Notes under the pieces: generated by a model | What the model was told of the DNA's origin: nothing | The model's input: only the letters and a program-made list of their open reading frames with translations | Databases searched by the model: none | Part shown: one piece after another, positions 10,266 through 45,125 of the stretch | Layout: each line of letters opens with the position of its first letter | Numbering within the stretch: the stretch's first letter is position 1 | Assembly: GCA_965214675.1 (NCBI GenBank) | Contig: OZ243969.1 | Coordinates: forward strand, 1,797,511 to 1,861,510 | Reading direction: 5' to 3' | Source of the DNA: Gammaproteobacteria bacterium | GTDB taxonomy: Bacteria; Pseudomonadota; Gammaproteobacteria; UBA4575 | Length of the DNA stretch: 64,000 nt | Position numbers and translations under genes: made by a program

Positions 10266-10856
10266 GTGAACAACTTCAACCTACAAATACTGCGCACGGA
10301 TGTGTCGGGCATGCCCATGGAATGGGTAAATTATCAGGATGCTGTGCGCCTGTACCACATTGAGCAGGTAGCCTATACATGTGGTGAACGACTGTATGTA
10401 GTTCGTGGTGGGGTCAATGCACGTAGTGGTCTTCGCAGTCAAATCGAGGTTCATTCGATTATTGCCACACAAGGCAGCAACCGTTCAGTACATGACAGCT
10501 ATATTCCTCCACTGAACAACCGCGCACTGTTCAAGCGTGATGCCAACATGTGCCTGTATTGCGGACAACGATTCAATCGGCGCGACTTGTCGCGGGATCA
10601 TGTGCGGCCTCTGAGTCGGGGCGGTTGTGATGACTGGAACAATGTCGTCACGGCTTGTAAACGCTGCAATAACCACAAGGCTGGACAAACTCCTGAGCAG
10701 GCGAACATGCAGTTGCTGGCCATTCCTTTTACTCCTACTCATGCTGAATATATTTATTTGCAGGGACACCGTGTACTTGCCGATCAGATGAAATTCCTAC
10801 TGGCGCATTTCCCGCGCACAAGCCCCCTGCACAAGCGTTTCAATAAGCTGGCATAA
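10266..10856 (+). CDS. HNH endonuclease family protein
   Basis: LFKRD..CLYCG...SRDHVRPLSRGG.D.WNNVVTACKRCNNHK. Confidence 0.88.
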   Translation: MNNFNLQILRTDVSGMPMEWVNYQDAVRLYHIEQVAYTCGERLYVVRGGVNARSGLRSQIEVHSIIATQGSNRSVHDSYIPPLNNRALFKRDANMCLYCGQRFNRRDLSRDHVRPLSRGGCDDWNNVVTACKRCNNHKAGQTPEQANMQLLAIPFTPTHAEYIYLQGHRVLADQMKFLLAHFPRTSPLHKRFNKLA

Positions 10857-23198: not shown

Positions 23199-24239
23199 AT
23201 GAGCCCTGCATTCAGTGAGCAACTACTGGTCTGGTTTGATCGGCATGGCCGTAAAGATCTCCCATGGCAACGCGATCGTGACCCCTACCGAATCTGGATT
23301 TCGGAAATCATGCTGCAGCAGACACGCGTGGATACTGTGATTCCTTACTATGAAAGATTTATACATCGCTTTTCGGACATAGAAAAGCTGGCCGTTGCAG
23401 ACATTGATGAGGTGTTGCACTACTGGACAGGGCTGGGGTATTACGCACGTGCACGTAATATGCATAAAGCTGCGCGAGAACTTTGCAGACGGTCTCAAGG
23501 GAAGTTTCCTGAAGATATAGACGCAATGACTGCTCTGCCTGGTATAGGGCGCTCCACAGCTGCAGCTGTACTGGCACTTAGCTTTGGCCAGCGTCATGCC
23601 ATTTTGGATGGCAATGTAAAGCGTGTATTGACGAGATATTTCGAAGTAGAGGGATGGCCTGGTAAAGCCAAGGTGGAGAAGCAGCTCTGGGCAAGTGCAG
23701 AGTCTCTGCTGCCTGATTATCGCATGGCAGACTACACGCAGGCTTTGATGGATCTCGGGGCAACGCTATGCACGCGGGTACGACCGGCCTGCAGGCAGTG
23801 TCCGGTTCAGGGTAATTGCATCGCGTTCAAAAAATGTCGACAACATGAACTGCCTGCACCCCGACCTACTCGCGATTTACCCCGCCGGAATGTCCATGTA
23901 GCACTGATTCGAAACAAGGAAAATGCGGTGTGGTTGGAGAGGCGACCTTCAACTGGAATTTGGGGCGGGCTCTACAGCTTCCCTGAATTCGAGAAGGAAG
24001 CTGACTTACAGAAGTGGCTGACAGATACGTGTAAAATGGACAACCTGACAGTGAGGATGTTGCCCGTAATTACGCATACTTTCTCACATTTTCGGCTTCA
24101 CATGCACCCGAAGGTGGTGTTGATGGAAAACAACCCCATTGGTGTGATGGAAGATGATGACGGGGTTTGGTATAAAGCCATCGGTGAAAAGATTGGCCTA
24201 GCAGCCCCTGTTCGCAAGGCCTTACAGCAAGTAATTTGA
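23199..24239 (+). CDS. mutY: A/G-specific adenine glycosylase
   Basis: [34 protein letters not shown], 4Fe-4S Cys motif. Confidence 0.97.
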
Positions 24240-24258
24240 TGTACAAGGGAAAACATTC

Positions 24259-24537
24259 ATGGCACGTATGGTTCAATGTGTAAAGCTTCATAAGGAAGCG
24301 GAAGGACTTGAATACATGCCGTATCCGGGAGAACTCGGACAGAAAATTTACGATAATGTTTCCAAAGAGGGGTGGCAACAGTGGGTAGGTCATCAGACCA
24401 TGCTGATGAACGAATACAGATTGACGCCTGTTGACCCCAAAGCACGAAAGTTTCTAGAAGAGGAAATGGAGAAATTCTTTTTTGGCGAAGGGTCGGAAAA
24501 ACCCAAGGAATTTGTGGACCCCGACAGCAGGCAATAG
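24259..24537 (+). CDS. yggX: Fe(II)-trafficking / oxidative damage protection protein
   Basis: [26 protein letters not shown]; follows mutY. Confidence 0.96.
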
Positions 24538-24615
24538 TCAACTCGGAGTTCAAGTCGATCCCTTCATAATTGGAAGTCTCCGTTAAATTACAGCCTTAAC
24601 AAGACCTTCAGCTCT

Positions 24616-24691
24616 GGCCAGGTAGCTCAGTCGGTAGAGCAGTGGACTGAAAATCCTCGTGTCGGTGGTTCGATTCCGCCCCTGGCCACCA
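24616..24691 (+). tRNA. tRNA-Phe (GAA)
   Basis: 76 nt GGCCAGG...CCTGGCC-ACCA, D loop AGTCGGTA, anticodon loop CTGAAAA, T loop TTCGATT. Confidence 0.97.
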
Positions 24692-24692
24692 T
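24647..24692 (+). repeat. att direct repeat copy 1 (46 bp, tRNA-Phe 3' half)
   Basis: Identical to 34489-34534. Confidence 0.93.
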
Positions 24693-24933
24693 TAAATCAG
24701 TTAGTTATAAAAATTTTGTTTCTAATAGAGTCGATAGTTTTGATTTTCCACCATTCTTCCACCAACTAAATTTATTATTCGGGTTCAATGGTACATTGAA
24801 CCGCGGACTCACATTATTGATTGTTTATAAACTTTCCCACATGGCTACGGCCAACAAGGATGTAAAATTGCGGGCATGCGCTAACCTAAAAAACTGTGGT
24901 TGGATCTCTAACAAGACAATGTAATATTTCATT

Positions 24934-25338
24934 TTAATAAGCTCCAGATTTCATCACATCTGCCACTGTTGTGTATGTGATAGTCCATGCTTCTCTAGTT
25001 TCAGGTGTGAATTCATCTTTTAAACCCTTTTCTAGGGTCCAAAGTAATGCTTCACCAACTTTGTCATAATCTTCAGCTTTAACGCCATACGAGACATGTT
25101 TGTTACCTAATTCTTTGATTGGATCTAATAAAGGTTCTAAATCATCAAGGCTATTTACTGCAAGTGTGATCATTTGCATGAGTTTTTTCCCTTGTTCTTT
25201 CATATCGCCTTTGAAATAGGGTTTAACTTCTGGGTAAATTTCAAATAAACGGGTGTAGAACATATCAGCAGCCACTTCGCTTATAGGGGTTACTTTTGAC
25301 CAAGAATTTTTAACAAGCTCTTTTTGTTCTGGTGTCAT
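24934..25338 (-). CDS. single-domain globin
   Basis: FYTRLF (B10 Tyr), PYF (CD1), EQGKKL (E7 Gln), LGNKH (F8 His), YDKVGEALLWTL. Confidence 0.92.
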   Translation of the reverse strand: MTPEQKELVKNSWSKVTPISEVAADMFYTRLFEIYPEVKPYFKGDMKEQGKKLMQMITLAVNSLDDLEPLLDPIKELGNKHVSYGVKAEDYDKVGEALLWTLEKGLKDEFTPETREAWTITYTTVADVMKSGAY

Positions 25339-25730
25339 TATTTTTCCTTTTTTATGTTGATATAGTGTTGAGCAAGTTCAGTCATATAGTCTACAGCTGC
25401 TTTTACTTCTTCATCGGTTAATGATTCGTTACCGCCTTTCGCTGGCATCATAGAATCATCTGGACCAAAAAATCCTTCTATAGCATGCGTATAGAGTATT
25501 TCAGTTTCTTGCTCTAAACGTTTTTCCCAATCTCCTGGAATTAATGGGTTTGGGGAATCCGCTATTCCGTATGCATGGCAGTTTTCACATGTATCTAGCC
25601 AAATTGAGCGTCCATGCTCCAAGTGAGTTCCTTCAAACTTGATGTATTCAGTCTTTTCAGCATGCAATACATTGTTTAAAAGTACGCATGCTGTAAATAT
25701 AAGGATTGTTGTTGGTTTAAGCTTAGCCAC
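25338..25730 (-). CDS. cytochrome c5-type monohaem cytochrome
   Basis: Signal peptide, CENCH, HAIEGF...MMPAKGG...LTDEEVKAAVDYM. Confidence 0.9.
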   Translation of the reverse strand: MAKLKPTTILIFTACVLLNNVLHAEKTEYIKFEGTHLEHGRSIWLDTCENCHAYGIADSPNPLIPGDWEKRLEQETEILYTHAIEGFFGPDDSMMPAKGGNESLTDEEVKAAVDYMTELAQHYINIKKEK

Positions 25731-26331
25731 TAACTGGAATACGTATTACTACGCCACCCATTACGTCGCCGACTTTGAAATCATCTTTAGGTGTATCTTT
25801 ATGTCCGTTATGACAGCTTGCGCAAACAGGTGCTACTGCGGTGTCAGCATAAACAGCAGTAAAGTACGTAACTCCACCCAACTCTTCTGTGGTGTAGTAA
25901 TTTTGTCCTTTGTTTTCAGCTACAAACTTTAAACCTTCTTTTTCTGCATTGGTTTCGGGTGCATTTTGCTTATTAATTGGCCATAGCGATTGCAATGAGT
26001 AGCTGAAATTAATGTCTGGATTCTTTTCAGCTTTCTCTGCAACCATTTCCGCACCAAATCGAAACATTTGGGCAGGTAAGACTAATGCTTTATCGTCATC
26101 AAAATGTTCACTGGCTTTAATTACTTTTTCTTTCTTCACTAGCCGGTTCACAATTTTCTTTGTATAAACCGCTCGATCAGAATCCATTACCATATGTAAT
26201 GCATCGGCCATGGTTCTTGGTGTGATGGATGGAATATCACCTGCATCTGATGCCCAGACAATGCTTGCACCTAATGCAGTGACACATACAAAGGATAATA
26301 ATATCCATGACTCCCTTAGTTTACTTTTCAT
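25723..26331 (-). CDS. Tll0287-like (DUF3365-type) periplasmic haem c protein
   Basis: Signal peptide, LPAQMFR, YSLQSLWPINKQNAP, CASCH, FKVGDVMGGVVIRIP. Confidence 0.8.
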   Translation of the reverse strand: MKSKLRESWILLSFVCVTALGASIVWASDAGDIPSITPRTMADALHMVMDSDRAVYTKKIVNRLVKKEKVIKASEHFDDDKALVLPAQMFRFGAEMVAEKAEKNPDINFSYSLQSLWPINKQNAPETNAEKEGLKFVAENKGQNYYTTEELGGVTYFTAVYADTAVAPVCASCHNGHKDTPKDDFKVGDVMGGVVIRIPVSG

Positions 26332-26409
26332 AATTTCCTCTTAGTTTTTAGGTTGGGGGAAGTTAAATTAAAATAGCAATATGTTTTTTCATTTGAGAAT
26401 TTATTTCTT

Positions 26410-27810
26410 TTATTCATTATTCTTTTTATTTAAGTGCTGCTCGTTATCTTTACGCGCAAGATCTGTACTTTCTATATGCACAGTAGGTTGACCATTGAAG
26501 TTGTTGTTTATTAACTTTTGATCAGCTAATGCATTAATCGAAAAGCCCAAGCCATGACAATGCAGGCAGGATGAACGAATCATTTTGCTGTTGGGTGAAA
26601 GGTTTCCGCTTTGGTTATGATCAACCATTACGCGTGTTAACCATTCATTTACATCGTATTCCACTCTTGGCATATGACAGCTGGCGCATGAAACACCTGT
26701 AATAGAGTCATCGTTACTCTTAACTTGTTGTTGCCATAATTCATAATGGGGCGAATCTTTGTAAGCAAGAGTGTGATCATCTGCATGACAATCTAAACAG
26801 CTTTCAACTGCAGCCAAAGTTGTATCGAATCGATGTGCTCCATGGCAACTTACACATGCAAGTTCGTTATGTGCAGCACTTTTATTCATCGGCAGCTGAG
26901 CATCTTTGGGGGTCATGGGAGAAAGCCCGACTGCCAAACGCATTCCATGTTTACCTAATTTAAATCTCTCAACCTCAGTACCATGACAAGTTTGGCAGCT
27001 TTCTATACCTGGGTGGTCATTCCATGCAGAAAGTTCGTTTTGCTCGTTGCGAATTTGATGGCAGCCACTACAATTCACTCCTGCTTTGGAATGTGCGGTT
27101 TCCAACCAGTCACGATGAATGACATTGTCATTGTTAGAGGTTTCAGGTGCATCTACATCGGTTGATTGCAATGTTTGAACAGGATATAAGTCGCGTGGAT
27201 ACCCGAGAATTTCATCCAGTACATTTAAAAATTCGCTTTCAGGTAAATGTGGATTAGGCATGTGCATGGGGGCATCCATATGTTTAACAAGAAAGTCGGT
27301 ATACAAGGCGCGGTTGTTATGAAAGTTATGGCATCCGGAATCTTTACATGTGGTGAACTCCATATCGATGTGTGATGGCCTTTCTTCACCAACATCTTCA
27401 TGACAATGAAAGCAAAAATCTATGGGTTGGGTAAAACCATCTTTTTGTGTGATCTCAGGCTTATGTTCAACATGACAACTTGTACACATGAGTGCATTTA
27501 TTTTTTCTAGTCTATTTGCATTCCTTGGGTCTTTAAATTTTGAGCGAGGGTGTGAATCAAACGGTTTTACGCGTTGATCTCCATGGCAATTGATGCAGGC
27601 TTCTTGTAGCACTTCACCACCTCCAAATGCATTTGTATGGCAACTCTCGCAAGCGTTCTCCAATTGATGGTGACCCGCACTTAAATCCCCAGGCATAAAA
27701 ATAGCTTTGCTTACACCATCTCCTAATAACTGATAAACAAAAATCAGTACCAGTAAAGCACTTGCAATAAACCAAATGGTCCAAATTTTTAAAGTACTTT
27801 TTTTGGTCAT
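26410..27810 (-). CDS. membrane-anchored multihaem cytochrome c (10 CxxCH + 1 CX4CH), C-terminal half HAO-like
   Basis: N-terminal TM; CESCH, CINCH, CTSCH, CFHCH, CKDSGCH, CSGCH, CQTCH, CVSCH, CLDCH, CASCH, CLHCH. Confidence 0.88.
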   Translation of the reverse strand: MTKKSTLKIWTIWFIASALLVLIFVYQLLGDGVSKAIFMPGDLSAGHHQLENACESCHTNAFGGGEVLQEACINCHGDQRVKPFDSHPRSKFKDPRNANRLEKINALMCTSCHVEHKPEITQKDGFTQPIDFCFHCHEDVGEERPSHIDMEFTTCKDSGCHNFHNNRALYTDFLVKHMDAPMHMPNPHLPESEFLNVLDEILGYPRDLYPVQTLQSTDVDAPETSNNDNVIHRDWLETAHSKAGVNCSGCHQIRNEQNELSAWNDHPGIESCQTCHGTEVERFKLGKHGMRLAVGLSPMTPKDAQLPMNKSAAHNELACVSCHGAHRFDTTLAAVESCLDCHADDHTLAYKDSPHYELWQQQVKSNDDSITGVSCASCHMPRVEYDVNEWLTRVMVDHNQSGNLSPNSKMIRSSCLHCHGLGFSINALADQKLINNNFNGQPTVHIESTDLARKDNEQHLNKKNNE

Positions 27811-27822
27811 ATAAATTCACTT

Positions 27823-29841
27823 TTAATACCAGTAGCTTTTTAAAATATGCCAAGCCAGTAAAACTGGTACAGGCCAAAAAAGAAAAATATGCCAAAGTAC
27901 TGATAGCCGTCTCACGCGTGTACTAGATGCATTACTAATACGATGTTCAATACCAATTAAGCCAGTAGAGATAGCGCCAATAAATAACATGCCAGTAAAA
28001 CTGAGCATTAAAAGAAAACTTAACCCGTTTCCTAAGCGGAACCCCGTATGCGCAATCAAACCAAGAATAACAAGCACACCGAGTGCAATATGAAACATGC
28101 GCCAGAACTCAAACTTTCCTAGTTTGTCAAAAGCTCGAATTCGTTTGCGTAATGAAACTAACAGTCCAACCGTGAATAGACCTAAAATTGTAAAACCAGA
28201 AACTTGCTTATTAAATTGTTCTCTCCATAACATATCCCAATGCCATTCGTGTTGAACAGATGTTGCATAAGGAATTGCTGGGGCAAAGAAAAACAATAAT
28301 GTAGCCAGCAAGGCAAAGCTGGAAAATCCAATTAATGTTTTATGCATTGATGTAGGTTCGGATATGCTTTGGTTACCTAATAGGTCTTGCACAAGTGGTT
28401 TGCATGAGCCACATACTGTGCTTGCACCTGTTTTTTTAGAAACTTCTTCAAGTTTGCAAGTGCCTGCTGAGATGGCACTTTCAATGGATCCTTTTGTTAC
28501 CCCCATGCACTGACAGACCAATGCATGAGATGGCCATGCGCTTACACCTTGGCTAACTTCTTCTGACCAAACATTTCCTGTGTTTATAAATCGAATGATT
28601 TGCCAAGGGAAAATATATTCATTTTTACCTATTAGGGTTTGTAGTCGAACGGTTTCTCCCCAATTGCCAAGTCCAATTGCGCCTTTTAGGCGATAGCGGT
28701 GGACTAATATTTTTCTGTAAACGCCTTTTTTGTCATCAAAGTATTTATACGTTTTTCCATAGTGTGATATTTCATTGACCCCTATCGGGCCCATGCTAAA
28801 CACTTGTGTACCTACAATTTTTAAGCGCGATGCAGCGATTGAGCCTGCATAGTTATTTACAACTTTAAAAATATTTGCGGCTGCTACTGATGCTTGTTCT
28901 AATCCAGGTGTAACTAACCCATAAACTTTGTTTTGATGTTCTGCACATTCGCCAATTGCATATATATTTCTATTCGATGTTTGCATTGCATTGTTCACGG
29001 TTATGCCGCGAGAAAATGCAAGTCCAGCATTTTTAGCTAGACTAATATTTGGACGAATTCCTGTTGCAACAATTAGTGTATCGCACGTAAGTTCCTTTCC
29101 GGAACGAAGTCGAATCCCTTTTAATCTTTCGTTAACTAATACTTCAACAACTCCGTCACCAATAATGACGTTAATCCCTAGTGATTCAATTTCATTTTGT
29201 AATAGCTCTGATGCGTCCTCATCTAATTGTTGGCCTAATAAATGATCTGTGTTTTCTACTAGTGTGACTTTGGTGTTGCCCATTTGCATTGCGCGTGCAG
29301 ATTCAATACCTAATAAGCCACCTCCCAAAACTATGGTGTGATGGCTTCTCGCGCGTCTTGCTAATAATGCATTTGCATCTTTTAAATTTCGAAAGGTATA
29401 TACGCCTGTTGCATGAATACCTTTGATATCAGGCAGGTGTGGGTTAGATCCTGTAGCAAGAACTAACTTAAAGTATGGTTGGGTTTTCCCAGTATTGTCG
29501 GTGACTGTTTGCTTATCAGTATCGATAGATTCAATTTTGTAACCAATTTTTTCAGTTACATTGTGTAATGCATTTTTTTCAAGTGGCTGTAGTAATGTTT
29601 CCCAATTAATTTCACCCGCAAGCCAAGAAGATAATTGAACGCGATTATATGTCTCATACTGTTCTTCTCCGTAAATGACGATTGGGGTACTTGATTTGTG
29701 CTCCAACAGCTCGCGAACTACTCGCATGCCGACTGGACCGTTACCAATTATTACAATTGGCAACGGTTCAATCTCAGCATTGTCGCAGTACTGAGGGCCT
29801 ATTATATTTTCAGCTTGTTTATGAAAATTATTTTTTTTCAT
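27823..29841 (-). CDS. NirB/NasB-like FAD/NAD(P)H oxidoreductase + BFD [2Fe-2S] + C-terminal membrane domain
   Basis: IIGNGPVG, LGGGLLGIE, YAIGECAEH, CQC...CGSC; five hydrophobic helices with two Hx13H pairs; no sirohaem domain. Confidence 0.85.
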   Translation of the reverse strand: MKKNNFHKQAENIIGPQYCDNAEIEPLPIVIIGNGPVGMRVVRELLEHKSSTPIVIYGEEQYETYNRVQLSSWLAGEINWETLLQPLEKNALHNVTEKIGYKIESIDTDKQTVTDNTGKTQPYFKLVLATGSNPHLPDIKGIHATGVYTFRNLKDANALLARRARSHHTIVLGGGLLGIESARAMQMGNTKVTLVENTDHLLGQQLDEDASELLQNEIESLGINVIIGDGVVEVLVNERLKGIRLRSGKELTCDTLIVATGIRPNISLAKNAGLAFSRGITVNNAMQTSNRNIYAIGECAEHQNKVYGLVTPGLEQASVAAANIFKVVNNYAGSIAASRLKIVGTQVFSMGPIGVNEISHYGKTYKYFDDKKGVYRKILVHRYRLKGAIGLGNWGETVRLQTLIGKNEYIFPWQIIRFINTGNVWSEEVSQGVSAWPSHALVCQCMGVTKGSIESAISAGTCKLEEVSKKTGASTVCGSCKPLVQDLLGNQSISEPTSMHKTLIGFSSFALLATLLFFFAPAIPYATSVQHEWHWDMLWREQFNKQVSGFTILGLFTVGLLVSLRKRIRAFDKLGKFEFWRMFHIALGVLVILGLIAHTGFRLGNGLSFLLMLSFTGMLFIGAISTGLIGIEHRISNASSTRVRRLSVLWHIFLFWPVPVLLAWHILKSYWY

Positions 29842-29914
29842 GTAAAAAAATTCACACCTACATTTCTGTATAGGTATGACTTTGTTGTCTAAATAATTTG
29901 TTTGAATTTAATAA

Positions 29915-29931
29915 AGCAAGATCGATGCCAA
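29915..29931 (-). promoter_or_regulatory. sigma54 promoter of the oxidoreductase-cytochrome operon
   Basis: Minus strand TTGGCATCGATCTTGCT fits TGGCA-N6-TTGC; NtrC-like site TGAATCAGTTTGGTGCA at 30045-30061. Confidence 0.8.
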
Positions 29932-30189
29932 TTTTTTATTATCAAGATAAATATATGAAATTATTTATGTTAATTCCGCTTTTGCTTTATTAATTAAAAA
30001 ATTTCAAATATTAAAATGATTACGCTCTATTTGAGCACGCTGGATGAATCAGTTTGGTGCAAAAATTGCATCTCTCTTACTGAATGCCGGGTGCATTCTT
30101 TTGTAAAAATCCTGGGTTTGAAAAGCATGCGCGTGAAACTGGGCTTGCAGAACGTACACAAGCTGGCGTATTAGCAAATATTCACTAAA

Positions 30190-30615
30190 GGGCATTCGGG
30201 CGGCTGTAGGTAAAGACCCATAGACACGGAAGTTCTCCTGTCACACCCGTTGGATCTCACCCTGTAGCCACGCATATCGATGCCGATACGCATCGATATA
30301 CCGGACCATTACTTCAGTTTGCAGTCGAGCTCCGCCTGCGCGAAAAAAGCCGAAGCGGTCCCCAGAATTTCATTCGCACGACGCAACTCCCGAACCTCCT
30401 TCTCCAGGGCCTGCAAGCGACTGGATCCGTCCGGTACCACCACTCCTTGTACACCTTCTCGCCCTTGCGCACCTAGTCCGCAACGTCTTCGGACTGCAGC
30501 CCAGCGTCGCAGCTACCGACAGTATCCCTGACCACTCCGATGGATGCTCCTCGCGACCCGTGCTCACCAGGCGCACCACTCTCTCTTTGAACTCCGATAA
30601 ACCCGGTACAGTTCA
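30190..30615 (-). mobile_element. degenerate IS3-family (IS51/IS629-like) fragment
   Basis: Terminal TGAACTGTACCGGGTTTATCGGAG read from 30615; OrfA remnant VRLV...[20 protein letters not shown] and [23 protein letters not shown]; GC-rich relative to the island. Inner end is approximate. Confidence 0.8.
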
Positions 30616-30617
30616 CC

Positions 30618-30720
30618 CGCACTAAAATCGAACACGAGTGCTTATTTTGAGTGCAAATATATTTGCAAGTACCCGAAATCATTAATAAATGAACTAAAAA
30701 AAGTTGGCAAGAAAATTGCT
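30618..30720 (+). promoter_or_regulatory. NtrC-like sites and sigma54 promoter of nrt operon
   Basis: CGCACTAAAATCGAACA (30618-30634), TGCTTATTTTGAGTGCA (30639-30655), TTGGCAAGAAAATTGCT (30704-30720). Confidence 0.8.
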
Positions 30721-30776
30721 ATTAATATTTAACGATTGGAAAAAAATTAAGTTGTGAGCTGTAAGGCTTGGCAAAA

Positions 30777-30830
30777 GACAAAGGTGTCAAATTATGTTCG
30801 TGAATACGCGTCGCATAAGACACCTTTTTT
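30777..30830 (+). terminator. leader terminator overlapped by ANTAR-type hairpin (NasR/NasT antitermination element)
   Basis: GAC-AAAGGT-GTC hexaloop hairpin whose AAAGGTGTC also pairs with GACACCTTTTTT at 30819-30830. Confidence 0.7.
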
Positions 30831-30875
30831 ATCGCAGGAAACTGAACAAACTTTATATAACATCAGGAGATTAAA

Positions 30876-32258
30876 GTGCTGGATAGCAGACTAGGAAAAA
30901 TCAAACAGTTTGGTGTGGCATGTCTATTAATAGGATTTGCTCTTTTCAATAGTGTTGCCTATGCAGAACTAGGTGAGCCAGAGAAAGAAGATTTAAAGTT
31001 TGGTTTCATCAAACTGACCGACATGGCCCCCATTGCAATTGCATATGAGAATGGTTATTTCGAAGATGAAGGTTTATATGTAACGATTGAAGCTCAAGCA
31101 AATTGGAAAGTGCTTCTTGATGGTGTGATTGATGGTCAATTGGATGGCGCCCACATGCTTGCAGGTCAACCGCTTGCAGCAACAATTGGTTTTGGAACAA
31201 AAGCTCATCTCATTACTCCATTTTCAATGGATTTGAATGGTAACGGGATTACAGTATCGAATGATATTTGGGCACAAATGAAGCCTAATATTCCAAGAAT
31301 GGAAGATGGTCGACCCGTTCACCCGATCAAAGCAGATTATTTAAAACCTGTAGTAGAGAAATATAAAGAAGAAGGTAAGCCATTTAATATGGGAATGGTA
31401 TTCCCGGTGTCTACGCATAACTATGAACTACGTTATTGGTTAGCTGCTGGAGGTATACACCCAGGATACTATGCGCCACATAAAGGTGATATCACAGGTC
31501 AAATTGATGCTGATGCATTGCTTTCTGTAACTCCACCACCACAAATGCCTGCAACATTAGAGGCGGGAACAATTTATGGATATTGTGTGGGTGAACCGTG
31601 GAATCAACAAGCTGTTTTCAAAGGTATCGGTGTTCCTGTAATTACAGATTACGAAATATGGAAAAACAATCCTGAAAAGGTTTTTGGTATTACAGCAGCG
31701 TTTGCGGAAAAGTATCCTAACACTACTATTCGTTTAACACGCGCATTAATACGTGCTGCTATATGGCTAGACGAAAATGATAATGCAAATCGTCCTGCTG
31801 CAGTAAAAATTCTTTCACAGTCAAATTATGTTGGTGCAGACTACGATGTAATTGCAAACAGCATGACTGGTACATTTGAATATGAAAAGGGCGACAAAAG
31901 AGAAATTCCTGATTTCAATGTTTTCTTTCGTTATAACGCAACTTATCCTTATTACTCTGATGCAATTTGGTATTTAAGTCAGATGCGTCGTTGGGGGCAG
32001 ATTGCTGAAGATAAATCAGATGATTGGTATAAGGTAATTGCGGCAAAAGTATATCGACCTGATATTTATAGTAAAGCCGCAATGTCGCTTATCGATGAAG
32101 GTTTAGCGGATGCAGAAGGGTTCCCAGATTTTGAATCAGAGACAGGTTTTAAACCACCACAGCCAGAATTTATTGATGAGATTACTTTTGATGGTTCAAA
32201 ACCAAATGAATACTTAGAAAAGTTTTCAATTGGTTTAAAAGCAGGCGATAAAGTTTAA
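30876..32258 (+). CDS. nrtA: CmpA/NrtA-family nitrate/nitrite ABC substrate-binding protein
   Basis: [59 protein letters not shown]. Confidence 0.9.
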
Positions 32259-32311
32259 GTCGATTGGGGAAAAAGGTTTAACTTTTCACAAACTTATTGA
32301 GCTATAGAGAC

Positions 32312-33307
32312 ATGTCTAACAGTGCATTAATACATAAAATAAGTGCTAATTCTGAACTTTCGCTTGGTTTGGTGTCGTTTTTTTTAAACGCATTTCATCA
32401 AATCGTAATACCAATACTTGGGATATCAATTTTCTTATTGCTGTGGTCATTTGCTGCAAAAAATGTTGAGACATCATTAGGAAATTTTCCTGGTCCTGGA
32501 GAGGTTTGGAAGCAATTTGGCGGTCTTTATAGTGAGTATAAAACTGAACGAGGTAAGGAAGATGCGTTCTATCAAAGGTTAGAAGAGCGCAATGCAAAAA
32601 AATTGGCTAAGAACCCTGATTATGTACCTAAGAAACGTAAATATACAGGTAAAGAAACCTTTCTTGACCAGATCTTTACTAGTTTAAAAACCGTAATGTG
32701 TGGATTCTTGCTTGCAGCTATTATTGCAATTCCACTTGGCATCGCGATTGGATTAAGTAAAACGTTAAATACTTCAGTGAATCCAATCATTCAGATATTT
32801 AAACCTGTATCACCTTTAGCTTGGCTGCCGTTAGTTACCATGGTGGTTAGTGCATTATATGTTTCTGACAATCCAATTGTTCCAAAGTCGTTTATTAATT
32901 CGATGATTACTGTAACGCTTTGTTGTCTATGGCCAATGGCAATCAACACCTCAGTGGGAGTTGCGTCAATTAATAAAGATTTAGTAAATGTAAGTCGAGT
33001 ATTAAAACTACCTCCGCTTAGTCATGTAAGAAAAATCGTAATACCAGCATCGGTACCCAGCATTTTCACAGGTATGCGTTTATCTCTAGGAATCGCATGG
33101 ATGGTGCTTATCGCGGCAGAGATGTTGGCTCAGAATCCCGGATTAGGAAAATTTGTATGGGACGAATTCCAAAATGGAAGCTCCAACTCATTAGGAAGAA
33201 TAATGGCTGCAGTAGTTGTTATTGGATTTATTGGGTTTTTGTTAGATCGTGCAATGCTCCAGATTCAGCGTTTTGTATCTTGGGATAAAGCCTCTGCAAC
33301 ACGCTAA
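32312..33307 (+). CDS. nrtB: nitrate ABC transporter permease
   Basis: KPVSPLAWLP, FTGMRLSLGIAWMVLIAAEML, GLGKFVWDEF. Confidence 0.9.
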   Translation: MSNSALIHKISANSELSLGLVSFFLNAFHQIVIPILGISIFLLLWSFAAKNVETSLGNFPGPGEVWKQFGGLYSEYKTERGKEDAFYQRLEERNAKKLAKNPDYVPKKRKYTGKETFLDQIFTSLKTVMCGFLLAAIIAIPLGIAIGLSKTLNTSVNPIIQIFKPVSPLAWLPLVTMVVSALYVSDNPIVPKSFINSMITVTLCCLWPMAINTSVGVASINKDLVNVSRVLKLPPLSHVRKIVIPASVPSIFTGMRLSLGIAWMVLIAAEMLAQNPGLGKFVWDEFQNGSSNSLGRIMAAVVVIGFIGFLLDRAMLQIQRFVSWDKASATR

Positions 33308-33348
33308 TTATTTTTAAATTGTTAATTTCGGTAACTAGAGCCCTAGTT

Positions 33349-34203
33349 ATGAATAATGTAATTCTTGATATCAGCGATATCGATATGGAGTTTCCAACGC
33401 CTAAGGGGCCATTTACTGCGCTTAAAAAAATCGATTTAAAAGTTTCAAAAGGTGAGTTTGTGTCACTTATTGGGCATTCCGGTTGCGGTAAGTCCACAGT
33501 GTTAAACATTGTAGCTGGTCTTTATCAAGCAACACGTGGTGGTGTAGTGCTAAGTGGTAAAGAGGTCACATCACCGGGCCCTGAACGTGCAGTGGTATTT
33601 CAAAATCATTCATTGTTACCTTGGTTGACGGCCTATCAGAATGTTGAATTGGCAGTTAAACAAGTATTCAAGAAAACAAAATCAAAAATAGAGTTAAAAG
33701 AATGGATCGAGCATAACTTGAGTTTGGTGCATATGGACCATGCAATGCACAAACGTCCGGATGAGTTATCTGGTGGGATGAAACAAAGGGTGGGAATTGC
33801 AAGAGCGCTATCGATGCAGCCGGAAGTTCTGCTCATGGATGAGCCATTTGGCGCATTGGATGCACTTACGCGTGCATATATGCAAGAGACGTTAATGGAA
33901 ATTCAAAACGAACTTAAGAATACCGTAATTATGATAACGCATGATGTAGATGAGGCTGTATTGTTGTCAGATAGAATTGTAATGATGACTAATGGTCCAT
34001 CTGCAAAAATTGGTGAGATTCTTGAAGTTAACCTTGAACGCCCAAGAGATCGAATTTCTTTGGCAGAAACACCAGAGTATTCTAAGTTGCGTCACGCAGT
34101 ACTCAGTTTCTTATATGAAAAACAAAGAAAAGTAGAAAATATATCGGGCCAACAACGTAAGACACCAGCCCAAGCTACATTAAAAAATAGCGCAGTTGCC
34201 TAG
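33349..34203 (+). CDS. nrtD: nitrate ABC transporter ATP-binding protein (NrtC/D type)
   Basis: GHSGCGKST, VFQNHSLLPW, LSGGMKQR, MDEPFGALDALTR, MMTNGP. Confidence 0.88.
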   Translation: MNNVILDISDIDMEFPTPKGPFTALKKIDLKVSKGEFVSLIGHSGCGKSTVLNIVAGLYQATRGGVVLSGKEVTSPGPERAVVFQNHSLLPWLTAYQNVELAVKQVFKKTKSKIELKEWIEHNLSLVHMDHAMHKRPDELSGGMKQRVGIARALSMQPEVLLMDEPFGALDALTRAYMQETLMEIQNELKNTVIMITHDVDEAVLLSDRIVMMTNGPSAKIGEILEVNLERPRDRISLAETPEYSKLRHAVLSFLYEKQRKVENISGQQRKTPAQATLKNSAVA

Positions 34204-34488
34204 AAATCATTACTATTCAAGTCCAATAAGAACTTAATCGATATTAACAGGAGACAATATCTATCATTTACAAGAAGAGGATAAGGTTTCTCATATCTTT
34301 GTAATGTCGTTTTGGAAAGTAAAAGTTTTTCGTTTACGGTGCAATGGGCCGCAAACTCCTCGTCCCGCTTTCTGTCGACCGCCTGATCCACCACTTTTGC
34401 ACTCATTTTCAAACACCTTTGGCACTACGATGCCGTGTCTTCGTTTAAGGGTATTTATACGACGTTCAAAAGTAGGTAGGGCATGTTT

Positions 34489-41327: not shown

Positions 41328-41768
41328 CTACCATGAACTGTATTTCAGGAATTTACCATTCATCGTGATCACGACACGATCTCCTTTCGGGTTCTCTTCC
41401 TTATCAATGTCCATGGAAAAATCGATGGCACTCATGATGCCATCGCCAAACTTCTCACCAATAATCTGTTTGATGGTGTAGCCATAGACACCGACAATTT
41501 CGTAAAACCTGTAGATGACAGGGTCTTGCGGCACAATTTTATCCCAGGCCTTGTTAGGAAATTCCTGCAAAGTGGCACACACATCATCGTCTAGTTCAAG
41601 CACCTCGCATAAGCTTTTGGCAGCATCTTCAGGCATGCTGTTCAGCCCATAACTTGCAGAAGCCACCCAGACCTCACCCATACCCATCTTGCTGGCAATT
41701 GCTTCCCAGGTGAGTCCTTTTGCCTTTTTCGAGGCCATAATTTGATCGGTCATTTCTTCTTTTGTCAT
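41328..41768 (-). CDS. cynS: cyanase
   Basis: DPVIYRFYEI, EKFGDGIMSAIDF, GDRVVITMNGKFL.Y..W. Confidence 0.96.
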   Translation of the reverse strand: MTKEEMTDQIMASKKAKGLTWEAIASKMGMGEVWVASASYGLNSMPEDAAKSLCEVLELDDDVCATLQEFPNKAWDKIVPQDPVIYRFYEIVGVYGYTIKQIIGEKFGDGIMSAIDFSMDIDKEENPKGDRVVITMNGKFLKYSSW

Positions 41769-41805
41769 TATTATTTACTCCGTATACGCTACATAGTTAT
41801 ATTTC

Positions 41806-41934
41806 AGCAAAAAACGGGCCAACTCTGCGAACCAAGAGAGTTCATTGAAATTTTGTCATATCTGGGTCATTAAAGAAGACGTCGTGACTGCATTATTGCA
41901 CTGAAATGGTGCATTTTTGCACTAAAATCTTGCG
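41806..41934 (-). promoter_or_regulatory. sigma54 promoter and NtrC sites for cynS
   Basis: Minus strand TTGGCCCGTTTTTTGCT (41806-41822); TGCAC-N7-GTGCA at 41897-41913; second site TGCACTAAAATCTTGCG at 41918-41934. Confidence 0.8.
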
Positions 41935-42003
41935 GCTGGCTGTTTATAAGGACTCGTGAATATGAAACTTACAGACACGCGTTATTTCGCACCCAATCCG
42001 GAA

Positions 42004-42936
42004 TTACTGCATGCTTTTCGTCTGAAGCATCGCTGAAGACCATTCCGAGGCAAGCTCCAGGAAGGCGAGGCATGCGGGACTTTTGTACCCGCTTTTGTGC
42101 CAGATCATGCTGACCGTGTGATGAGGAAGTTCTGGCATGACTTCAATAGGATGGAGTCCCCTTTGTGTGTTGATGATGGTACTGGGCAGGACTGTGGCCA
42201 GTGAACCCAGTTCAACCATCTCAATGATCACCGTCAGTGAATTGGTCTCAATCACATTTCGTGGTTCAATACCGTAGTCATGGCAATAGCGATCAATATG
42301 ATGTCGAAGGGCAAAGTCGGTATTCAGCTGTACCAGGGACTCCTTGCCAAAGTCCTGGGCATTGAGATGTTTTTTTCGTTTGGCGCGGGGATGCGCATCG
42401 CCGACGGCAAGATAAAGGGCCTCCTCGAACAAGGTAAAAGTTTCCGTATTACTGGAGGCTTCCTCGGAATCGGAGGGCTTGCTGAATGCGATTCCGATGT
42501 CAATTCGGGCCTCTGATATTGCAGGCTCAATATCATCTTGGGGCATATCCAGTGTGCTCAGCGTGATGCCAGGATACAGATGGTGATAGCGGGCCAGTAA
42601 GGAGCACGTCAGGTAGTCTGTTATTGGCGTCCACCCCAGTCGCAGTGAGCCACGACTGAGATCTTGAACATCCTGGATCGCCCGGGTACCGATGTTCAAT
42701 TCTCCCCATGCACGGCGTGCATGCTGCAGAAAGATTTTCCCGGCATCGGTCAGTTGTACAGAGCGGCCCGACCGGTCCAGCAGGGGTGACTGCAGGTAAT
42801 CTTCCAGTTGTTTGATTTGCTGGGATAACGTGGGCTGTGAAACATGCAAGGCCTCTGCCGCACGCGTATAGCTGCCATATTCTGCTATGGCAATCAGGTA
42901 CTGGAGAGAACGTGGGAAGATGTCCCGTCGGTCCAT
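42004..42936 (-). CDS. cynR: CynR-like LysR transcriptional regulator
   Basis: HTH TRAAEALHVSQPTLSQQIKQLE, DLSRGSLRLG.TP, DIGIAF, FALR..ID.Y. Confidence 0.85.
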   Translation of the reverse strand: MDRRDIFPRSLQYLIAIAEYGSYTRAAEALHVSQPTLSQQIKQLEDYLQSPLLDRSGRSVQLTDAGKIFLQHARRAWGELNIGTRAIQDVQDLSRGSLRLGWTPITDYLTCSLLARYHHLYPGITLSTLDMPQDDIEPAISEARIDIGIAFSKPSDSEEASSNTETFTLFEEALYLAVGDAHPRAKRKKHLNAQDFGKESLVQLNTDFALRHHIDRYCHDYGIEPRNVIETNSLTVIIEMVELGSLATVLPSTIINTQRGLHPIEVMPELPHHTVSMIWHKSGYKSPACLAFLELASEWSSAMLQTKSMQ

Positions 42937-42999
42937 AGTTAAACCCTATAAGTTTGATAAATATAAAGTCTTGGATTAATAACATAACTCCATTAGACT
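42935..42999 (+). promoter_or_regulatory. LysR operator (T-N11-A) and sigma70 promoter of scn operon
   Basis: ATAG-TTAAACC-CTAT (42935-42949) overlapping the cynR start codon, then 21 nt, then TTGGAT-N17-TAGACT. Confidence 0.72.
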
Positions 43000-43129
43000 T
43001 GTCATTACCTCACATTAAGGCCCTATAAAATTAGTATATAAGCGAATTCTAAAGTACACCGAATCACCCAACATGCAAGGCAACTTGTTTGACATCCGGA
43101 TATGCGAAAAATAAGAGGAGTTCAAAACT

Positions 43130-43561
43130 ATGCCATCTGATACCAGACAGAAAGTAATGCGGCACATTGACATAGTCGGTCAATTGCAACCAGCTTTACA
43201 TCAGCCGCAGCATGCCCCCCTTCCCACTGCTATTGATAACGCTCATTTCAGAGCCTACATGCGTACTTCACACGATGTAGGTGGAGAGCCCGATGTGTCA
43301 ATTGAGTGGCATGAAAAAGAAGAAGAACAGTGGGAATTAAACACCTACGTGACGTGCGAGTGTTTGGCATGGCGCGGTGTATGGAATGCCGAGGAAAGAC
43401 GACGTCGGCAGAATGTCGACTTGGGTCAAACACAATACCTGGGTTTGCCTTATTACGGGCGTTGGCTGCTATCTGCTGCAAGGATCATGGTGGATAAGCA
43501 GCATATTACTCTCACAGAATTAATGAATAAGATCGATGAGGTGAAAAAGCGACATGAGTAG
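43130..43561 (+). CDS. scnB: thiocyanate hydrolase beta subunit
   Basis: QPALHQ, HDVGGE, HEKEEE.WELNT..TCECLAWRGVW.AEERRR.QN.D.GQT.YLG.PYYGRWLL, as in Thiobacillus thioparus ScnB (recalled). Confidence 0.93.
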   Translation: MPSDTRQKVMRHIDIVGQLQPALHQPQHAPLPTAIDNAHFRAYMRTSHDVGGEPDVSIEWHEKEEEQWELNTYVTCECLAWRGVWNAEERRRRQNVDLGQTQYLGLPYYGRWLLSAARIMVDKQHITLTELMNKIDEVKKRHE

Positions 43562-43907
43562 AGGTCATCATGCTGAAAAAGCGACCGGCAAGGGCGATCC
43601 ACAATGCTTTGTAGGGGAAGCTCCGCCGCCAAAGTTTAAAGTCGGGGATCGCGTAAGGATCCGGGATTTGCCAGACATTTTCTATACCCGATGCCAAGTG
43701 TATACGCGGGGTGCCGAAGGGGTGGTCGCGGTTGTCACACATGAAAGTCCTGCCCCTGAGGATGAGGCCTGGGATAATGTGGATGCACCCGAGTGGTTCT
43801 ACATTGTGCGCTTCAAGCAGAAGGAGCTTTGGTCGGAATATCCTGATGTTTACGCGAATGACACTTTGCAGACAGAATTTTCAGAACGTTGGCTAGAGCC
43901 TGTTTAA
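43554..43907 (+). CDS. scnA: thiocyanate hydrolase alpha subunit
   Basis: ATG.GDPQCF, KF.VGDRVRI.DLPD.FYTR, YTRGA, ESPA.EDEA, ANDTL.TE. Confidence 0.93.
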   Translation: MSRGHHAEKATGKGDPQCFVGEAPPPKFKVGDRVRIRDLPDIFYTRCQVYTRGAEGVVAVVTHESPAPEDEAWDNVDAPEWFYIVRFKQKELWSEYPDVYANDTLQTEFSERWLEPV

Positions 43908-43954
43908 GCTTGGCTGACTGTATCGATAAAAAGAATTGAATAGAGAGGAACGAA

Positions 43955-44647
43955 ATGGCAGAGAAACATAAGCCCGCACCTATGGTGGATGAAGTAAGTG
44001 ACTTTGAGGTTCTGGAAGTTGCCGTTCGAGAGTTGGCTATTGAAAAGGGTCTTTTTAGCGCTGAAGATCATCGGCGTTTTGCAGAATTTGCACATAGCAT
44101 AGGCCCTTTACCTGCAGCGCGACTCGTGGCGAAGTCCTGGCTGGACCCTGAGTTTAAAAAACTGGCTCTGGAAGACGGGTTTACCGCTAGCAAGGAAGTT
44201 GGAATCGACTGGCTGAATCCGACAGGATTTGGGACACCCAGTGATTATTGTGACCTGCGTGTCCTTGAAAACACGCCGTCGGTGCATCATGTGGTCGTGT
44301 GCACATTATGTTCATGCTATCCCAGACCGATCCTGGGCCATTCTCCTGAGTGGTACAGGACTCCAAATTATCGTCGCAGACTGGTTCGCTGGCCACGCCA
44401 GGTGTTGTCAGAGTTTGGTTTGCAAATTCCAGCAGATGTTGAGGTCAGGGTTGAGGACTCGAATCAGAAATGCCGTTTCATGGTCATGCCTATGCGGCCT
44501 GAGGGCACTGAGGACTGGAGTGAAGATCAGCTGGCTGAAATTGTTACACGTGATTGCATGCTGGGAGTTGCATTACCACATCCGGAGCGCAAGGCTGATG
44601 ACAAGCGGCCCGTACATAAGGCAGCCAACCCGGTTCACGGGCATTGA
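43955..44647 (+). CDS. scnC: thiocyanate hydrolase gamma subunit (Co-binding)
   Basis: HKPAPMV, FGTPSDYC, VVCTLCSCYPRPILG (Co-type metal motif), NYRRRLVRWPRQVL. Confidence 0.95.
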   Translation: MAEKHKPAPMVDEVSDFEVLEVAVRELAIEKGLFSAEDHRRFAEFAHSIGPLPAARLVAKSWLDPEFKKLALEDGFTASKEVGIDWLNPTGFGTPSDYCDLRVLENTPSVHHVVVCTLCSCYPRPILGHSPEWYRTPNYRRRLVRWPRQVLSEFGLQIPADVEVRVEDSNQKCRFMVMPMRPEGTEDWSEDQLAEIVTRDCMLGVALPHPERKADDKRPVHKAANPVHGH

Positions 44648-44653
44648 TGCAGC

Positions 44654-45049
44654 GTGATGGACGACGCCACAGAAAAAAATGCCCCAGGAGCTGATCCGGC
44701 GAGCAATATGCCGGAATTTTCTTCTGTGTCTTTGCTGGAGAAGATTCGCACGCAGGGAAAAGCCTGGAAGGACCTGGCAAATCAATACGGTGTGGACAAC
44801 CCGGATCCTCCATGGAAGATAAATTTGGATTCAACCTGTGAGGCACTTTCTGCTGAGCAGTGTGCGCTCCCGGTACTGGAGCGCAGAAATGAAGAGGATA
44901 CGCTCTCCGAGAGCATGTACAAAGACGTTCCTTATCCGGAACGACAACTGCTCGCCCTGGCTCATTCCATGATTCAGCGCGGCTTGATAGATGAGGATGA
45001 ACTTGCGCTTCGCATGAAGTATGTCAGCAAGCGACTAAACAGCGTCTGA
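44654..45049 (+). CDS. thiocyanate hydrolase activator (P15K-like)
   Basis: Immediately after scnC; PPWK..LD..C, RR..ED.L...Y...PYPE.QLLALAHS...RGLIDE.EL..RM, similar to NHase beta-N-like accessory proteins. Confidence 0.75.
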   Translation: MMDDATEKNAPGADPASNMPEFSSVSLLEKIRTQGKAWKDLANQYGVDNPDPPWKINLDSTCEALSAEQCALPVLERRNEEDTLSESMYKDVPYPERQLLALAHSMIQRGLIDEDELALRMKYVSKRLNSV

Positions 45050-45125
45050 CGGGGCAATCACAGGTAGCAGGGCATCAGGTAGAGAGCATGACTGAAAGTC
45101 AACGATAACAAGGACAACATACTCT

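Follow-up and report, generated by a model that had tools for sequence, protein, structure and literature searches.

An eleven-haem cytochrome with a hydroxylamine oxidoreductase-type core that lacks the catalytic haem, paired with a NirB-type membrane flavoprotein: a probable electron wire

The HAO/NrfA group of multihaem cytochromes supplies central enzymes to the nitrogen and sulfur cycles, and how these proteins evolved by gaining and losing haems is under active study (PMC9250108). A gene at 26410..27810, on the reverse strand of a 64,000-nucleotide stretch of gammaproteobacterial DNA (contig OZ243969.1 of assembly GCA_965214675.1; hereafter the window), raises the question of whether the scaffold of hydroxylamine oxidoreductase (HAO) can serve a protein that is no longer an HAO-type enzyme. 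Its open reading frame (ORF) encodes a 466-residue, membrane-anchored eleven-haem cytochrome c, for which we use the working name MHC11. The original prediction, made from the sequence alone, was that of a catalytic HAO-like module fused to its own electron-wire domain. Our analysis favors, with moderate confidence, a different answer: MHC11 appears to be an eleven-haem wire, and not an HAO-type enzyme, in an undescribed conduit that leads electrons from NAD(P)H to the periplasm.

The translation contains ten CxxCH motifs and one CX4CH motif in two blocks separated by ~85 haem-free residues. The front block of five spans residues 54–161 (C54xxC57H58, C72xxC75H76, C109xxC112H113, C133xxC136H137 and the CX4CH site C155-KDSG-C160H161), and the rear block of six spans residues 247–419 (C247xxC250H251, C272xxC275H276, C319xxC322H323, C338xxC341H342, C375xxC378H379 and C415xxC418H419). 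This arrangement is the one that had been counted in the original prediction. All eleven motifs are invariant in an alignment of 42 MHC11 sequences (A1), whose members are 31–84% identical to the window protein; thus, the pattern is not due to chance. The same combination of ten CxxCH and one CX4CH is found in 146 of 158 full-length-like relatives, while ten others have eleven CxxCH, with a CxxCH at the fifth site, and two, possibly fragments or errors, have fewer sites (7 and 4). CxxCK is absent from MHC11 and from all relatives checked (0/158), and the NCBIfam models for NrfA give 25.1 bits against a cut-off of 595, in agreement with the earlier statement that the protein is not NrfA. Relatives are readily found (2501 matches in a word-indexed search; 153 cluster representatives at E≤1e-30 in an exhaustive search), and, where named at all, they carry only the database names "cytochrome c3 family protein", "hypothetical" or a generic nitrite reductase label. 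An AlphaFold2 model of MHC11 built on A1 has a mean predicted local distance difference test score (pLDDT) of 86.5 and a predicted template modelling score of 0.86.

The rear six-haem module (residues 217–441; 26488..27162) is a true relative of the superfamily formed by HAO, the octahaem nitrite reductases (ONR) and NrfA, and HAO is its closest member. Nine HAO and HAO-like genes, taken from a 400-genome sample of the host's class, were aligned (A2) and compared with A1 by hhalign, which returned a probability of 99.2% and an E-value of 2.3e-19 over 190 columns. A structural search with VIA, which is independent of Foldseek, covered 48,161 representative chains and gave only 17 at Z≥2, all of them multihaem cytochromes and headed by HAO entries with Z-scores of 7.7, 7.7 and 7.2, a range below 8 that the tool rates as middling. 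Upon re-alignment, residues 217–440 of the model superimpose on residues 112–446 of the Kuenenia HAO (4n4j) with a Z-score of 7.7, an rmsd (root mean square deviation) of 3.6 Å over 190 residues and 24% identity; the best HAO-family alignments overall have rmsd values of 3.6–3.9 over 190–202 residues. The Z-scores are 5.7–6.0 for octahaem nitrite reductases and 5.2–5.7 for NrfA. The top ten PDB matches from Foldseek are also all HAO-family proteins, with marginal E-values (2e-3 to 1.4e-2), and Foldseek alone found no match for the MHC11 model in the PDB at E≤0.001.

Sequence searches point in the same direction once the profile is used. Against PDB sequences, the A1 profile matches NrfA 2j7a (1.9e-10), the HAO-like octahaem protein IhOCC 4qo5 (2.4e-10), ONR (TvNiR; 1.9e-9) and the reductive HAO-like Kustc0457 (7.8e-9), while the MHC11 sequence by itself gives weak matches only, to NrfA and c3 proteins (E ~0.007). 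The Pfam family of HAO, PF13447 (Multi-haem_cyto), does not match MHC11 at E≤0.01, nor any of the seven candidates scored in the whole host genome at E≤0.001; it matched 39 of the 400 genomes of the host's class. The Pfam C552 match to MHC11 spans only profile positions 226–282 of 438. The likeness to HAO that had been noticed by eye is thus borne out by the profile comparison and by the HAO-led fold matches, and the structural comparison that had been suggested as a check places the HAO family best.

Which haems of HAO are retained? The A1–A2 alignment is colinear and matches six of the eight HAO haem positions. MHC11 haems 6 (C247), 7 (C272, CQTCH), 8 (C319, CxxCHxxH.F), 9 (C338), 10 (C375, CHMPR) and 11 (C415) are equivalent to HAO haems 2, 3, 5, 6, 7 and 8, respectively. 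The ONR profile alignment agrees, placing haems 6 and 7 of MHC11 on haems 2 and 3 of TvNiR, and structural alignments of MHC11 begin just past HAO haem 1. An assignment of CQTCH to HAO haem 4 was rejected, since the motif falls on haem 3 in hhalign, in the ONR profile alignment and judging by where the structural alignment begins. The stretch quoted in the original prediction therefore does align with the HAO family, but in a different register, in which CQTCH corresponds to haem 3 and not to the catalytic haem 4.

The CxxCH motif of the catalytic haem 4 (P460) of HAO lies opposite a gap at MHC11 residues 289–318 in the hhalign alignment. The segment in its place (26857..26946, reverse strand) is free of cysteine and contains two conserved residues, R291 (151/157 full-length sequences) and M308 (153/157). 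No cysteine occurs between haem motifs 7 and 8 in any of 146 MHC11 relatives, and the spacing of these motifs is exactly 42 residues in 132 of the 146. At the other end, the HAO alignment terminates right behind the last haem motif. The tail that follows has ~47 residues in MHC11 and a median of 49 in its relatives, compared with ~170 in HAO sequences, where it carries a conserved histidine and the cross-link tyrosine. Because the alignment ends there and the tail is short, the tyrosine-bearing C-terminal domain is absent from MHC11, and with it the P460 cross-link tyrosine, whose presence or absence had been suggested as a check. Judged by these alignments, the rear module retains an HAO-type core but has lost haem 1, the catalytic haem 4, the cross-link tyrosine and the C-terminal helical domain. 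The catalytic HAO-like module that had been proposed does not agree with this set of losses, nor with the missing PF13447 match.

The comparison with known proteins shows what has been kept, lost and added. Residues 217–441 share with the HAO family (HAO, hydrazine dehydrogenase, Kustc0457 and IhOCC) the backbone as well as the order and spacing of six haem motifs, and both MHC11 and HAO have the W..S.H, CxxCHxxH.F and S-x-H elements and a (D/S)HN stretch; a putative counterpart of the HAO Asp/His pair is kept in MHC11. Among the parts lost are the helices said to form the homotrimer interface of HAO, and MHC11 adds a c3-like domain and an anchor. NrfA and ONR (TvNiR) belong to the same superfamily (VIA Z 5.2–6.0) and share with MHC11 a CHMP(R/K) stretch followed by a hairpin and a histidine ahead of the last haem; they differ from it by their CxxCK motif, and the catalytic-haem segment is missing in MHC11. 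According to PMC9250108, MccA and cytochrome c554 have also lost the position of HAO haem 4, and OTR has no C-terminal helices and draws distal ligands for haems 1 and 7 from other places in its sequence. However, MccA, c554 and OTR have a five-coordinate haem elsewhere, in an N-terminal module, and are enzymes or dedicated carriers, whereas MHC11 has no evident open haem; the structural likeness to MHC11 is weak for both MccA (Z 2.8) and OTR (Z 2.9). A literature search found no description of an HAO-like protein with the combination of losses seen in MHC11. The "undecahaem" cytochromes of the literature, OmhA and the Tenderia cytochrome, were considered and set aside as different proteins, OmhA (6qvm) reaching a Z-score of only 3.6.

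If MHC11 is a wire, each of its haems should have two axial ligands. Histidines outside the motifs are conserved in 157/157 full-length sequences at H47, H116, H147, H164, H240, H326, H346, H355 and H398, and in 156/157 at H87 and H288. There are thus eleven conserved non-motif histidines for eleven haems, five in the front half and six in the rear half. Since the two numbers are equal, an all-bis-His wire is the likeliest arrangement, and all eleven haems are probably bis-His ligated. The original prediction had named an all-bis-His set without a substrate pocket, or a missing match to the HAO fold, as evidence that would count against it; the conserved histidines come close to such a set and favor an arrangement without an open haem, and the HAO fold match is present.

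The ligands of the rear half are less straightforward. The D344-D345-H346 stretch (26773..26781, reverse strand) is the putative counterpart, by hhalign and conservation, of the active-site Asp/His pair of HAO. H346 aligns with the histidine that directly follows the haem-6 motif of HAO, and D344 (153/157) precedes H346 by two residues and is not adjacent to it. The Asp/His pair is described as conserved in HAO-like proteins, where it lines the distal pocket of haem 4 (PMC6469936). Since haem 4 is missing in MHC11, the role of D344/H346 cannot equal that of the HAO pair. Two conserved histidines of HAO have no counterpart in MHC11, one in the H182 region between haem motifs 2 and 3 and the other, H479, in the C-terminal domain (numbering of the HAO sequence L016). 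As two HAO histidines are missing compared with one bis-His haem, one of the haems retained in MHC11 must be short of its customary distal ligand. By analogy with the ligands of NrfA, from which the pairing of histidines and haems in HAO is also partly deduced, the haem concerned is probably haem 10. H346 probably now ligates the haem that in HAO draws its ligand from the missing C-terminal domain.

In the front half, a hydrophobic helix at the N-terminus (residues 6–29; 27724..27795, reverse strand; assigned by DSSP on the model) is a putative uncleaved membrane anchor. It is followed by a five-haem c3-like domain (residues 43–165; 27316..27684, reverse strand) with four CxxCH motifs and the CX4CH motif. 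Pfam Cytochrom_c3_2 (PF14537) matches residues 47–138 with 62.2 bits against a curated cut-off of 25. VIA aligns residues 43–160 with the Shewanella tetrahaem c3 (STC, 1m1p) over 81 of 87 residues at 30% identity, with a low Z-score of 3.4, and also with the haem domain of the fumarate reductase flavocytochrome c3 (Z 2.2); weak sequence matches of MHC11 to 1d4c/1d4d were seen as well. Compared with STC, MHC11 adds the fifth haem (CX4CH), the anchor and the HAO-like module. The five conserved histidines of this domain suggest that its haems are bis-His. A haem-free linker without any motif (residues 166–216; 27163..27315, reverse strand) joins it to the rear module, with pLDDT values of 63–70 at residues 191–210. 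An additional haem domain is thus present at the N-terminus, as had been anticipated. Of the quinol dehydrogenases with a membrane-anchored tetrahaem head (NapC/NrfH/CymA), no NapC or NrfH family was found among the Pfam and NCBIfam matches or in the fold matches of the whole model, in which the front domain was not searched separately.

The gene directly upstream probably provides the electron source of the wire. It encodes a 672-residue protein (27823..29841, reverse strand), here called NirBTM, that combines a FAD/NAD(P)H region of the type found at the N-terminus of NirB, a BFD-like [2Fe-2S] domain and a five-helix membrane domain. It matches Pfam Pyr_redox_2 (1.1e-52) and Fer2_BFD (7e-13) and, at residues 29–508, an NCBIfam NirB domain, and it has no sirohaem domain. 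Four membrane histidines (H584, H598, H651 and H665) and the four cluster cysteines are invariant in 13/13 sequences. The histidines form two H-x13-H pairs, located on predicted helices three and five. Two such pairs are the pattern of a two-haem transmembrane cytochrome b, and, judged from this pattern, the membrane domain would bind b-type haems. The model of the membrane domain has a pLDDT of 87.5, and its best fold matches are talin (Z 11.7), a designed two-haem bundle (10.0), HyaC (8.7) and Dcytb (8.4). The Pfam ferric-reductase model is absent from the NirBTM matches.

The pairing of the two genes is obligate. We compared 12 loci from Pseudomonadota, Verrucomicrobiota, Planctomycetota and Fibrobacterota (cited below by their L numbers), and the NirBTM gene lies directly upstream of MHC11 in all 12. 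MHC11 is found in 24 of the 400 sampled genomes and the membrane domain in exactly those 24, with the two adjacent on one contig in 23 and on separate contigs in the remaining genome (G371). Both are missing from the two sampled genomes of the host's own family.

A predicted complex is consistent with a physical partnership. The membrane domain (residues 495–672) and the front half of MHC11 (residues 1–210) were folded together, each with its own separate alignment, and gave an ipSAE of 0.74 (0.73–0.74 in three runs), compared with 0.00 for the best of three controls. The mark of 0.74 is reached by 116 of 157 solved complexes and by 2 of 215 mismatched pairs, a calibration that is only rough here, since own alignments were used. 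Contact agreement between runs is at least 93%, and the pLDDT of the partner is at least 76. In the modelled interface, the anchor helix of MHC11 (residues 13–28) packs on the last membrane helix of NirBTM (656–672), while C54/H58 of haem 1 and residues 119–135 contact periplasmic loops 522–530 and 604–608 and the C-terminus beside H665. The model supports the binding of MHC11 to NirBTM.

The host genome contains a second trio at C1:455788-459126 (L030:789-4127). Its first protein, of 393 residues, is a GPP34 domain (PF05719, E 2.8e-35) fused to the same membrane domain, with the four histidines kept. The second, of 495 residues, is an MHC11 paralogue with 36% identity and all eleven conserved histidines, and the third is a 189-residue paralogue, at 54% identity, of the DUF3365 protein encoded downstream of MHC11. 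The second trio has no NAD(P)H/FAD module. The constant unit thus appears to consist of the membrane domain, the wire and the haem-Cache (DUF3365) protein, with a cytoplasmic donor that varies.

Two other members of the MHC11 family are unusual. P0190 (831 residues), one of the cluster representatives, has an N-terminal extension of ~430 residues ahead of a complete MHC11, which may be either a real fusion or an artefact of gene calling. A fusion of the membrane domain with MHC11 was rejected for this protein, as the extension looks by eye like a many-helix transporter and not like the two-haem domain. The MHC11 match at G350:C18:42641-44020 contains two in-frame stop codons (TAG and TAA), which a pseudogene or a sequencing error may explain.

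Downstream of MHC11, and on the same strand, the operon continues with genes for a Tll0287/DUF3365 protein, a monohaem cytochrome c and a single-domain globin. The Tll0287/DUF3365 (haem-Cache) protein (25723..26331; 202 residues; Pfam Tll0287-like, 1.1e-18) is periplasmic and has one CxxCH motif. Its gene is directly downstream of MHC11 in 11 of the 12 loci, the remaining one (L006) ending at the contig edge. C170, C173, H174, H177, M89 and M191 are invariant in 13/13 of these proteins, and the distal cysteine is absent. The monohaem cytochrome c (25338..25730; 130 residues; Pfam Cytochrome_CBB3, 1.1e-9) is encoded in 7 of the 12 loci. The globin (24934..25338; 134 residues; Pfam Globin, 1.1e-20) is cytoplasmic, resembles the globin domain of flavohaemoglobins, matches the NCBIfam model for the NO-inducible flavohaemoprotein at residues 3–130, and is found in 5 of the 12 loci. 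For a stand-alone haem-Cache protein of Pseudomonas putida, a preprint gives a potential of +123 mV, ligation by His/hydroxide once reduced and weak binding of nitric oxide (NO); it calls the function of such stand-alone members open and gives no pattern of gene association for them (10.64898/2026.02.01.703092).

The wider neighbourhood is rich in genes related to nitrogen. A divergent ABC transporter of the NrtA/NrtB/NrtC type (nitrate/nitrite/cyanate class) is located at 30876..34203 on the forward strand, its binding protein matching NMT1_2 at 1.6e-96. In 4 of the 12 loci (L002, L003, L008 and L012), all three Nrt homologues are encoded no more than 7 kb from MHC11, and in L001 NrtA alone is. 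A further scan covered the ORFs of the loci that had no prior identification (51 of the 136 called). Hemerythrin-HHE proteins of ~175 residues are encoded directly upstream of the flavoprotein gene at L004:4151-4672, L009:4309-4833 and L010:3046-3573; this family is often tied to NO or to the repair of iron centres. Genes for Alginate_exp-type porins precede the module in L001, L008 and L012, and the other neighbours include a full NirB in L008, an ANTAR regulator in L001 and, in L011, a truncated globin together with an FNR-like reductase. A described system with related gene content is the narK-bjgb-flp-nasC cluster of Bradyrhizobium, in which a single-domain globin and a NirB-N-terminal-like flavoprotein detoxify NO during nitrate assimilation (PMC4724949). 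Both systems place a globin and a flavoprotein of this type beside nitrate uptake genes. In comparison, the flavoprotein of the MHC11 operon has an added [2Fe-2S] domain and membrane domain and is always paired with MHC11 and the haem-Cache protein, and the globin is optional.

Taken together, these features suggest the following scheme. NirBTM would take electrons from NAD(P)H via FAD and the [2Fe-2S] cluster and pass them across the membrane over two b-type haems. MHC11 would act as a membrane-anchored electron wire on the periplasmic face of NirBTM, picking up the electrons near its own haem 1, and its HAO-like end would hand them to the haem-Cache protein, the monohaem cytochrome c or both. 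The haem-Cache protein would be the likely terminal site. The homology to HAO, the lost haem-4 motif, the obligate pairing of the genes and the residue conservation are observed, and we infer the b-type haems, the bis-His ligation, the direction of electron flow, the acceptor and the substrate in this scheme. Its physiological job would probably be to dispose of NO, nitrite or hydroxylamine that arises in nitrate assimilation. A role linked to nitrate assimilation and NO stress is likely, because the Nrt genes, globins, hemerythrin-type proteins, full NirB and ANTAR regulator that recur nearby implicate the nitrogen oxides of nitrate use. Elsewhere in the host genome, a full-length NirB-type ORF stands side by side with a NasA-like molybdoenzyme; consequently, the idea that the module replaces an assimilatory nitrite reductase in this host was rejected.

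Several observations weigh against the proposal of a wire fed by NAD(P)H. The HAO fold match is only middling (Z 7.2–7.7), so that the homology leans mainly on the profile comparison. The fold search with the NirBTM membrane domain gave generic helical bundles and no specific family, and the complex score is a model confidence, obtained with own alignments on a haem-free model. NAD(P)H cannot be the universal donor, because an NAD(P)H domain is missing from the paralogous trio, and the need for the module is unexplained in a host with a separate full-length NirB and a NasA-like enzyme. Eleven histidines for eleven haems would fit equally with H346 as a non-ligating pocket residue and one open haem. 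Finally, it is odd that a pure wire should keep an Asp/His pair whose original haem has been lost.

The last two points lead to the possibility that MHC11 is itself an enzyme, which we consider unlikely but worth weighing. One of the remaining haems, most likely haem 10 (CASCH-MPR), would be five-coordinate, and a new distal pocket for the reduction of nitrite, NO or hydroxylamine would be made up of D344/H346, close to R291 and M308. This would account for the conservation of H346, which aligns with the catalytic histidine of HAO (157/157), and of D344 (153/157), and for the haem left short of a ligand when two HAO histidines but one bis-His haem are lost. OTR, in which the same helices are missing, has shifted the distal ligands for haems 1 and 7 to other places in its sequence, and superfamily relatives show nitrite or NO reductase activity in vitro (PMC9250108); the nitrogen-linked neighbourhood also fits. 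However, the conserved histidines equal the haems in number, as a fully ligated wire predicts, CxxCK is absent (0/158), and R291 is conserved but not accompanied by any tyrosine at ≥95% (A1 consensus judged by eye and the residue list), so the full Arg/Tyr/His set of NrfA is not present. Moreover, the assignment of HAO histidines to haems on which the ligand count depends is itself indirect, resting partly on NrfA structures. The broader proposal, an undescribed periplasmic nitrogen-oxide reductase system fed directly by cytoplasmic NAD(P)H, by way of a flavo-iron-sulfur membrane protein with two haems and past the quinone pool, with MHC11 carrying an active site rebuilt on a neighbouring haem by way of the Asp/His residues, is quite unlikely. 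If it were true, MHC11 would represent a new catalytic class in the HAO/NrfA superfamily, present in ~6% of the sampled gammaproteobacterial species and in several other phyla.

Other destinations or directions of electron flow are less probable still. The module could be a general outward conduit to an acceptor other than nitrogen oxides (ferric iron or another metal, oxygen in a NOX-like production of superoxide, or a periplasmic repair reductase), the nitrate link being only regulatory. NirBTM does resemble the NOX/FRE ferric-reductase-domain oxidases in outline, with NAD(P)H and flavin inside, two pairs of histidines 13 apart in the membrane and electrons flowing outward; extracellular electron transfer typically relies on long multihaem wires; genes for outer-membrane porins stand ahead of the module in three loci; and the stand-alone haem-Cache protein, which bound NO weakly, autoxidised to superoxide (10.64898/2026.02.01.703092). 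Yet NirBTM differs from NOX/FRE proteins in its unmatched Pfam ferric-reductase model, its unspecific fold, its extra [2Fe-2S] cluster and its c-type haem wire as acceptor. Since the recurring neighbours are nitrogen- or NO-related, and no outer-membrane cytochrome or MtrB-like partner was found among the 51 of 136 neighbour ORFs scanned, we regard such a conduit as decidedly improbable. A reversed flow, in which periplasmic donors (cytochrome c, sulfur oxidation) would load the wire and the wire would feed the cytoplasmic flavoprotein, for example to keep the globin reduced, is very improbable. It would suit the reverse-type Dsr genes (NIR_SIR matches at C1:1266334-1268186) and other lithotrophic traits of the host, the paralogous trio without an NAD(P)H domain, and the reduction of the globin by the flavoprotein in the Bradyrhizobium Bjgb-Flp pair (PMC4724949). 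But electrons would have to run uphill from c-type haems to NAD(P)+ in the absence of any energy-coupling element, the module is also carried by heterotrophs such as Pleionea, Glaciecola and Oceanicoccus as well as by Planctomycetota and Verrucomicrobiota, and the globin is confined to 5 of the 12 loci.

Under the preferred reading, that of an outward wire serving nitrate assimilation, the MHC11 family would represent an HAO-type scaffold that has shed its catalytic haem and now serves electron transfer. A literature search found no paper on a direct electron path from NAD(P)H to the periplasm tied to nitrate assimilation. The operon would also give the stand-alone haem-Cache (DUF3365) proteins a context. 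Should NO, nitrite or hydroxylamine be turned over by the wire or by its terminal haem protein, gene-based inventories of nitrogen cycling miss a common pathway.

Regulation and origin of the operon can be addressed in part. A sigma-54-type promoter-like site at 29915..29930 (reverse strand), recognised only by its match to the consensus TGGCAYN5TTGCW, lies ~75–90 bases upstream of the first start codon of the operon. It is the sole consensus match in the window, where 0.42 would be expected, and at least one match occurred in 32 of 100 shuffles. Comparable matches are seen in 4 of the 12 loci, upstream of the NirBTM gene (L006, L011), of the porin gene (L001) and of nrtA (L012). The operon and the Nrt transporter are contained in a stretch of low G+C content (24000–34300; 38–43%, compared with ~50% in the window) that starts next to a tRNA-Phe gene (24616–24691, forward strand). 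Between the promoter-like site and nrtA, a G+C-rich patch (30250–30600) contains a match to the ALIL pseudoknot (30263–30351, reverse strand) that is below threshold (45.9 bits against a gathering cut-off of 50) and is probably the remnant of an insertion sequence, by eye the tail of an IS3-family orfA. An Rfam scan of 24–35 kb returned only the tRNA and the ALIL match, and no riboswitch or leader. The low G+C content, the tRNA border, the IS3-type remnant and the patchy distribution of the module suggest that the operon and the transporter are a horizontally acquired island.

Other parts of the window contain features of separate interest. A cluster for nitrogen and sulfur scavenging at 41328–48654 encodes a cyanase, a CynR-type regulator, the gamma subunit of a thiocyanate hydrolase (TIGR03887, E 2e-119) accompanied by nitrile-hydratase-beta-like proteins, and a second ABC transporter of the Nrt/Ssu type. 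A 196-residue ORF at 10266–10853 (forward strand) matches the HNH region of IscB/Cas9d at residues 87–146 (E ~1e-11); it is too short for either protein and probably encodes a stand-alone HNH nuclease. At 49297–52541 (reverse strand), a gene resembling dihaem peroxidases of the MauG/MbnH type (51252–52541) accompanies a 550-residue ORF (49297–50946) that has no NCBIfam match at E≤1e-10, the peroxidase-like gene being behind the ORF and both being located upstream of an aa3-type oxidase cluster.

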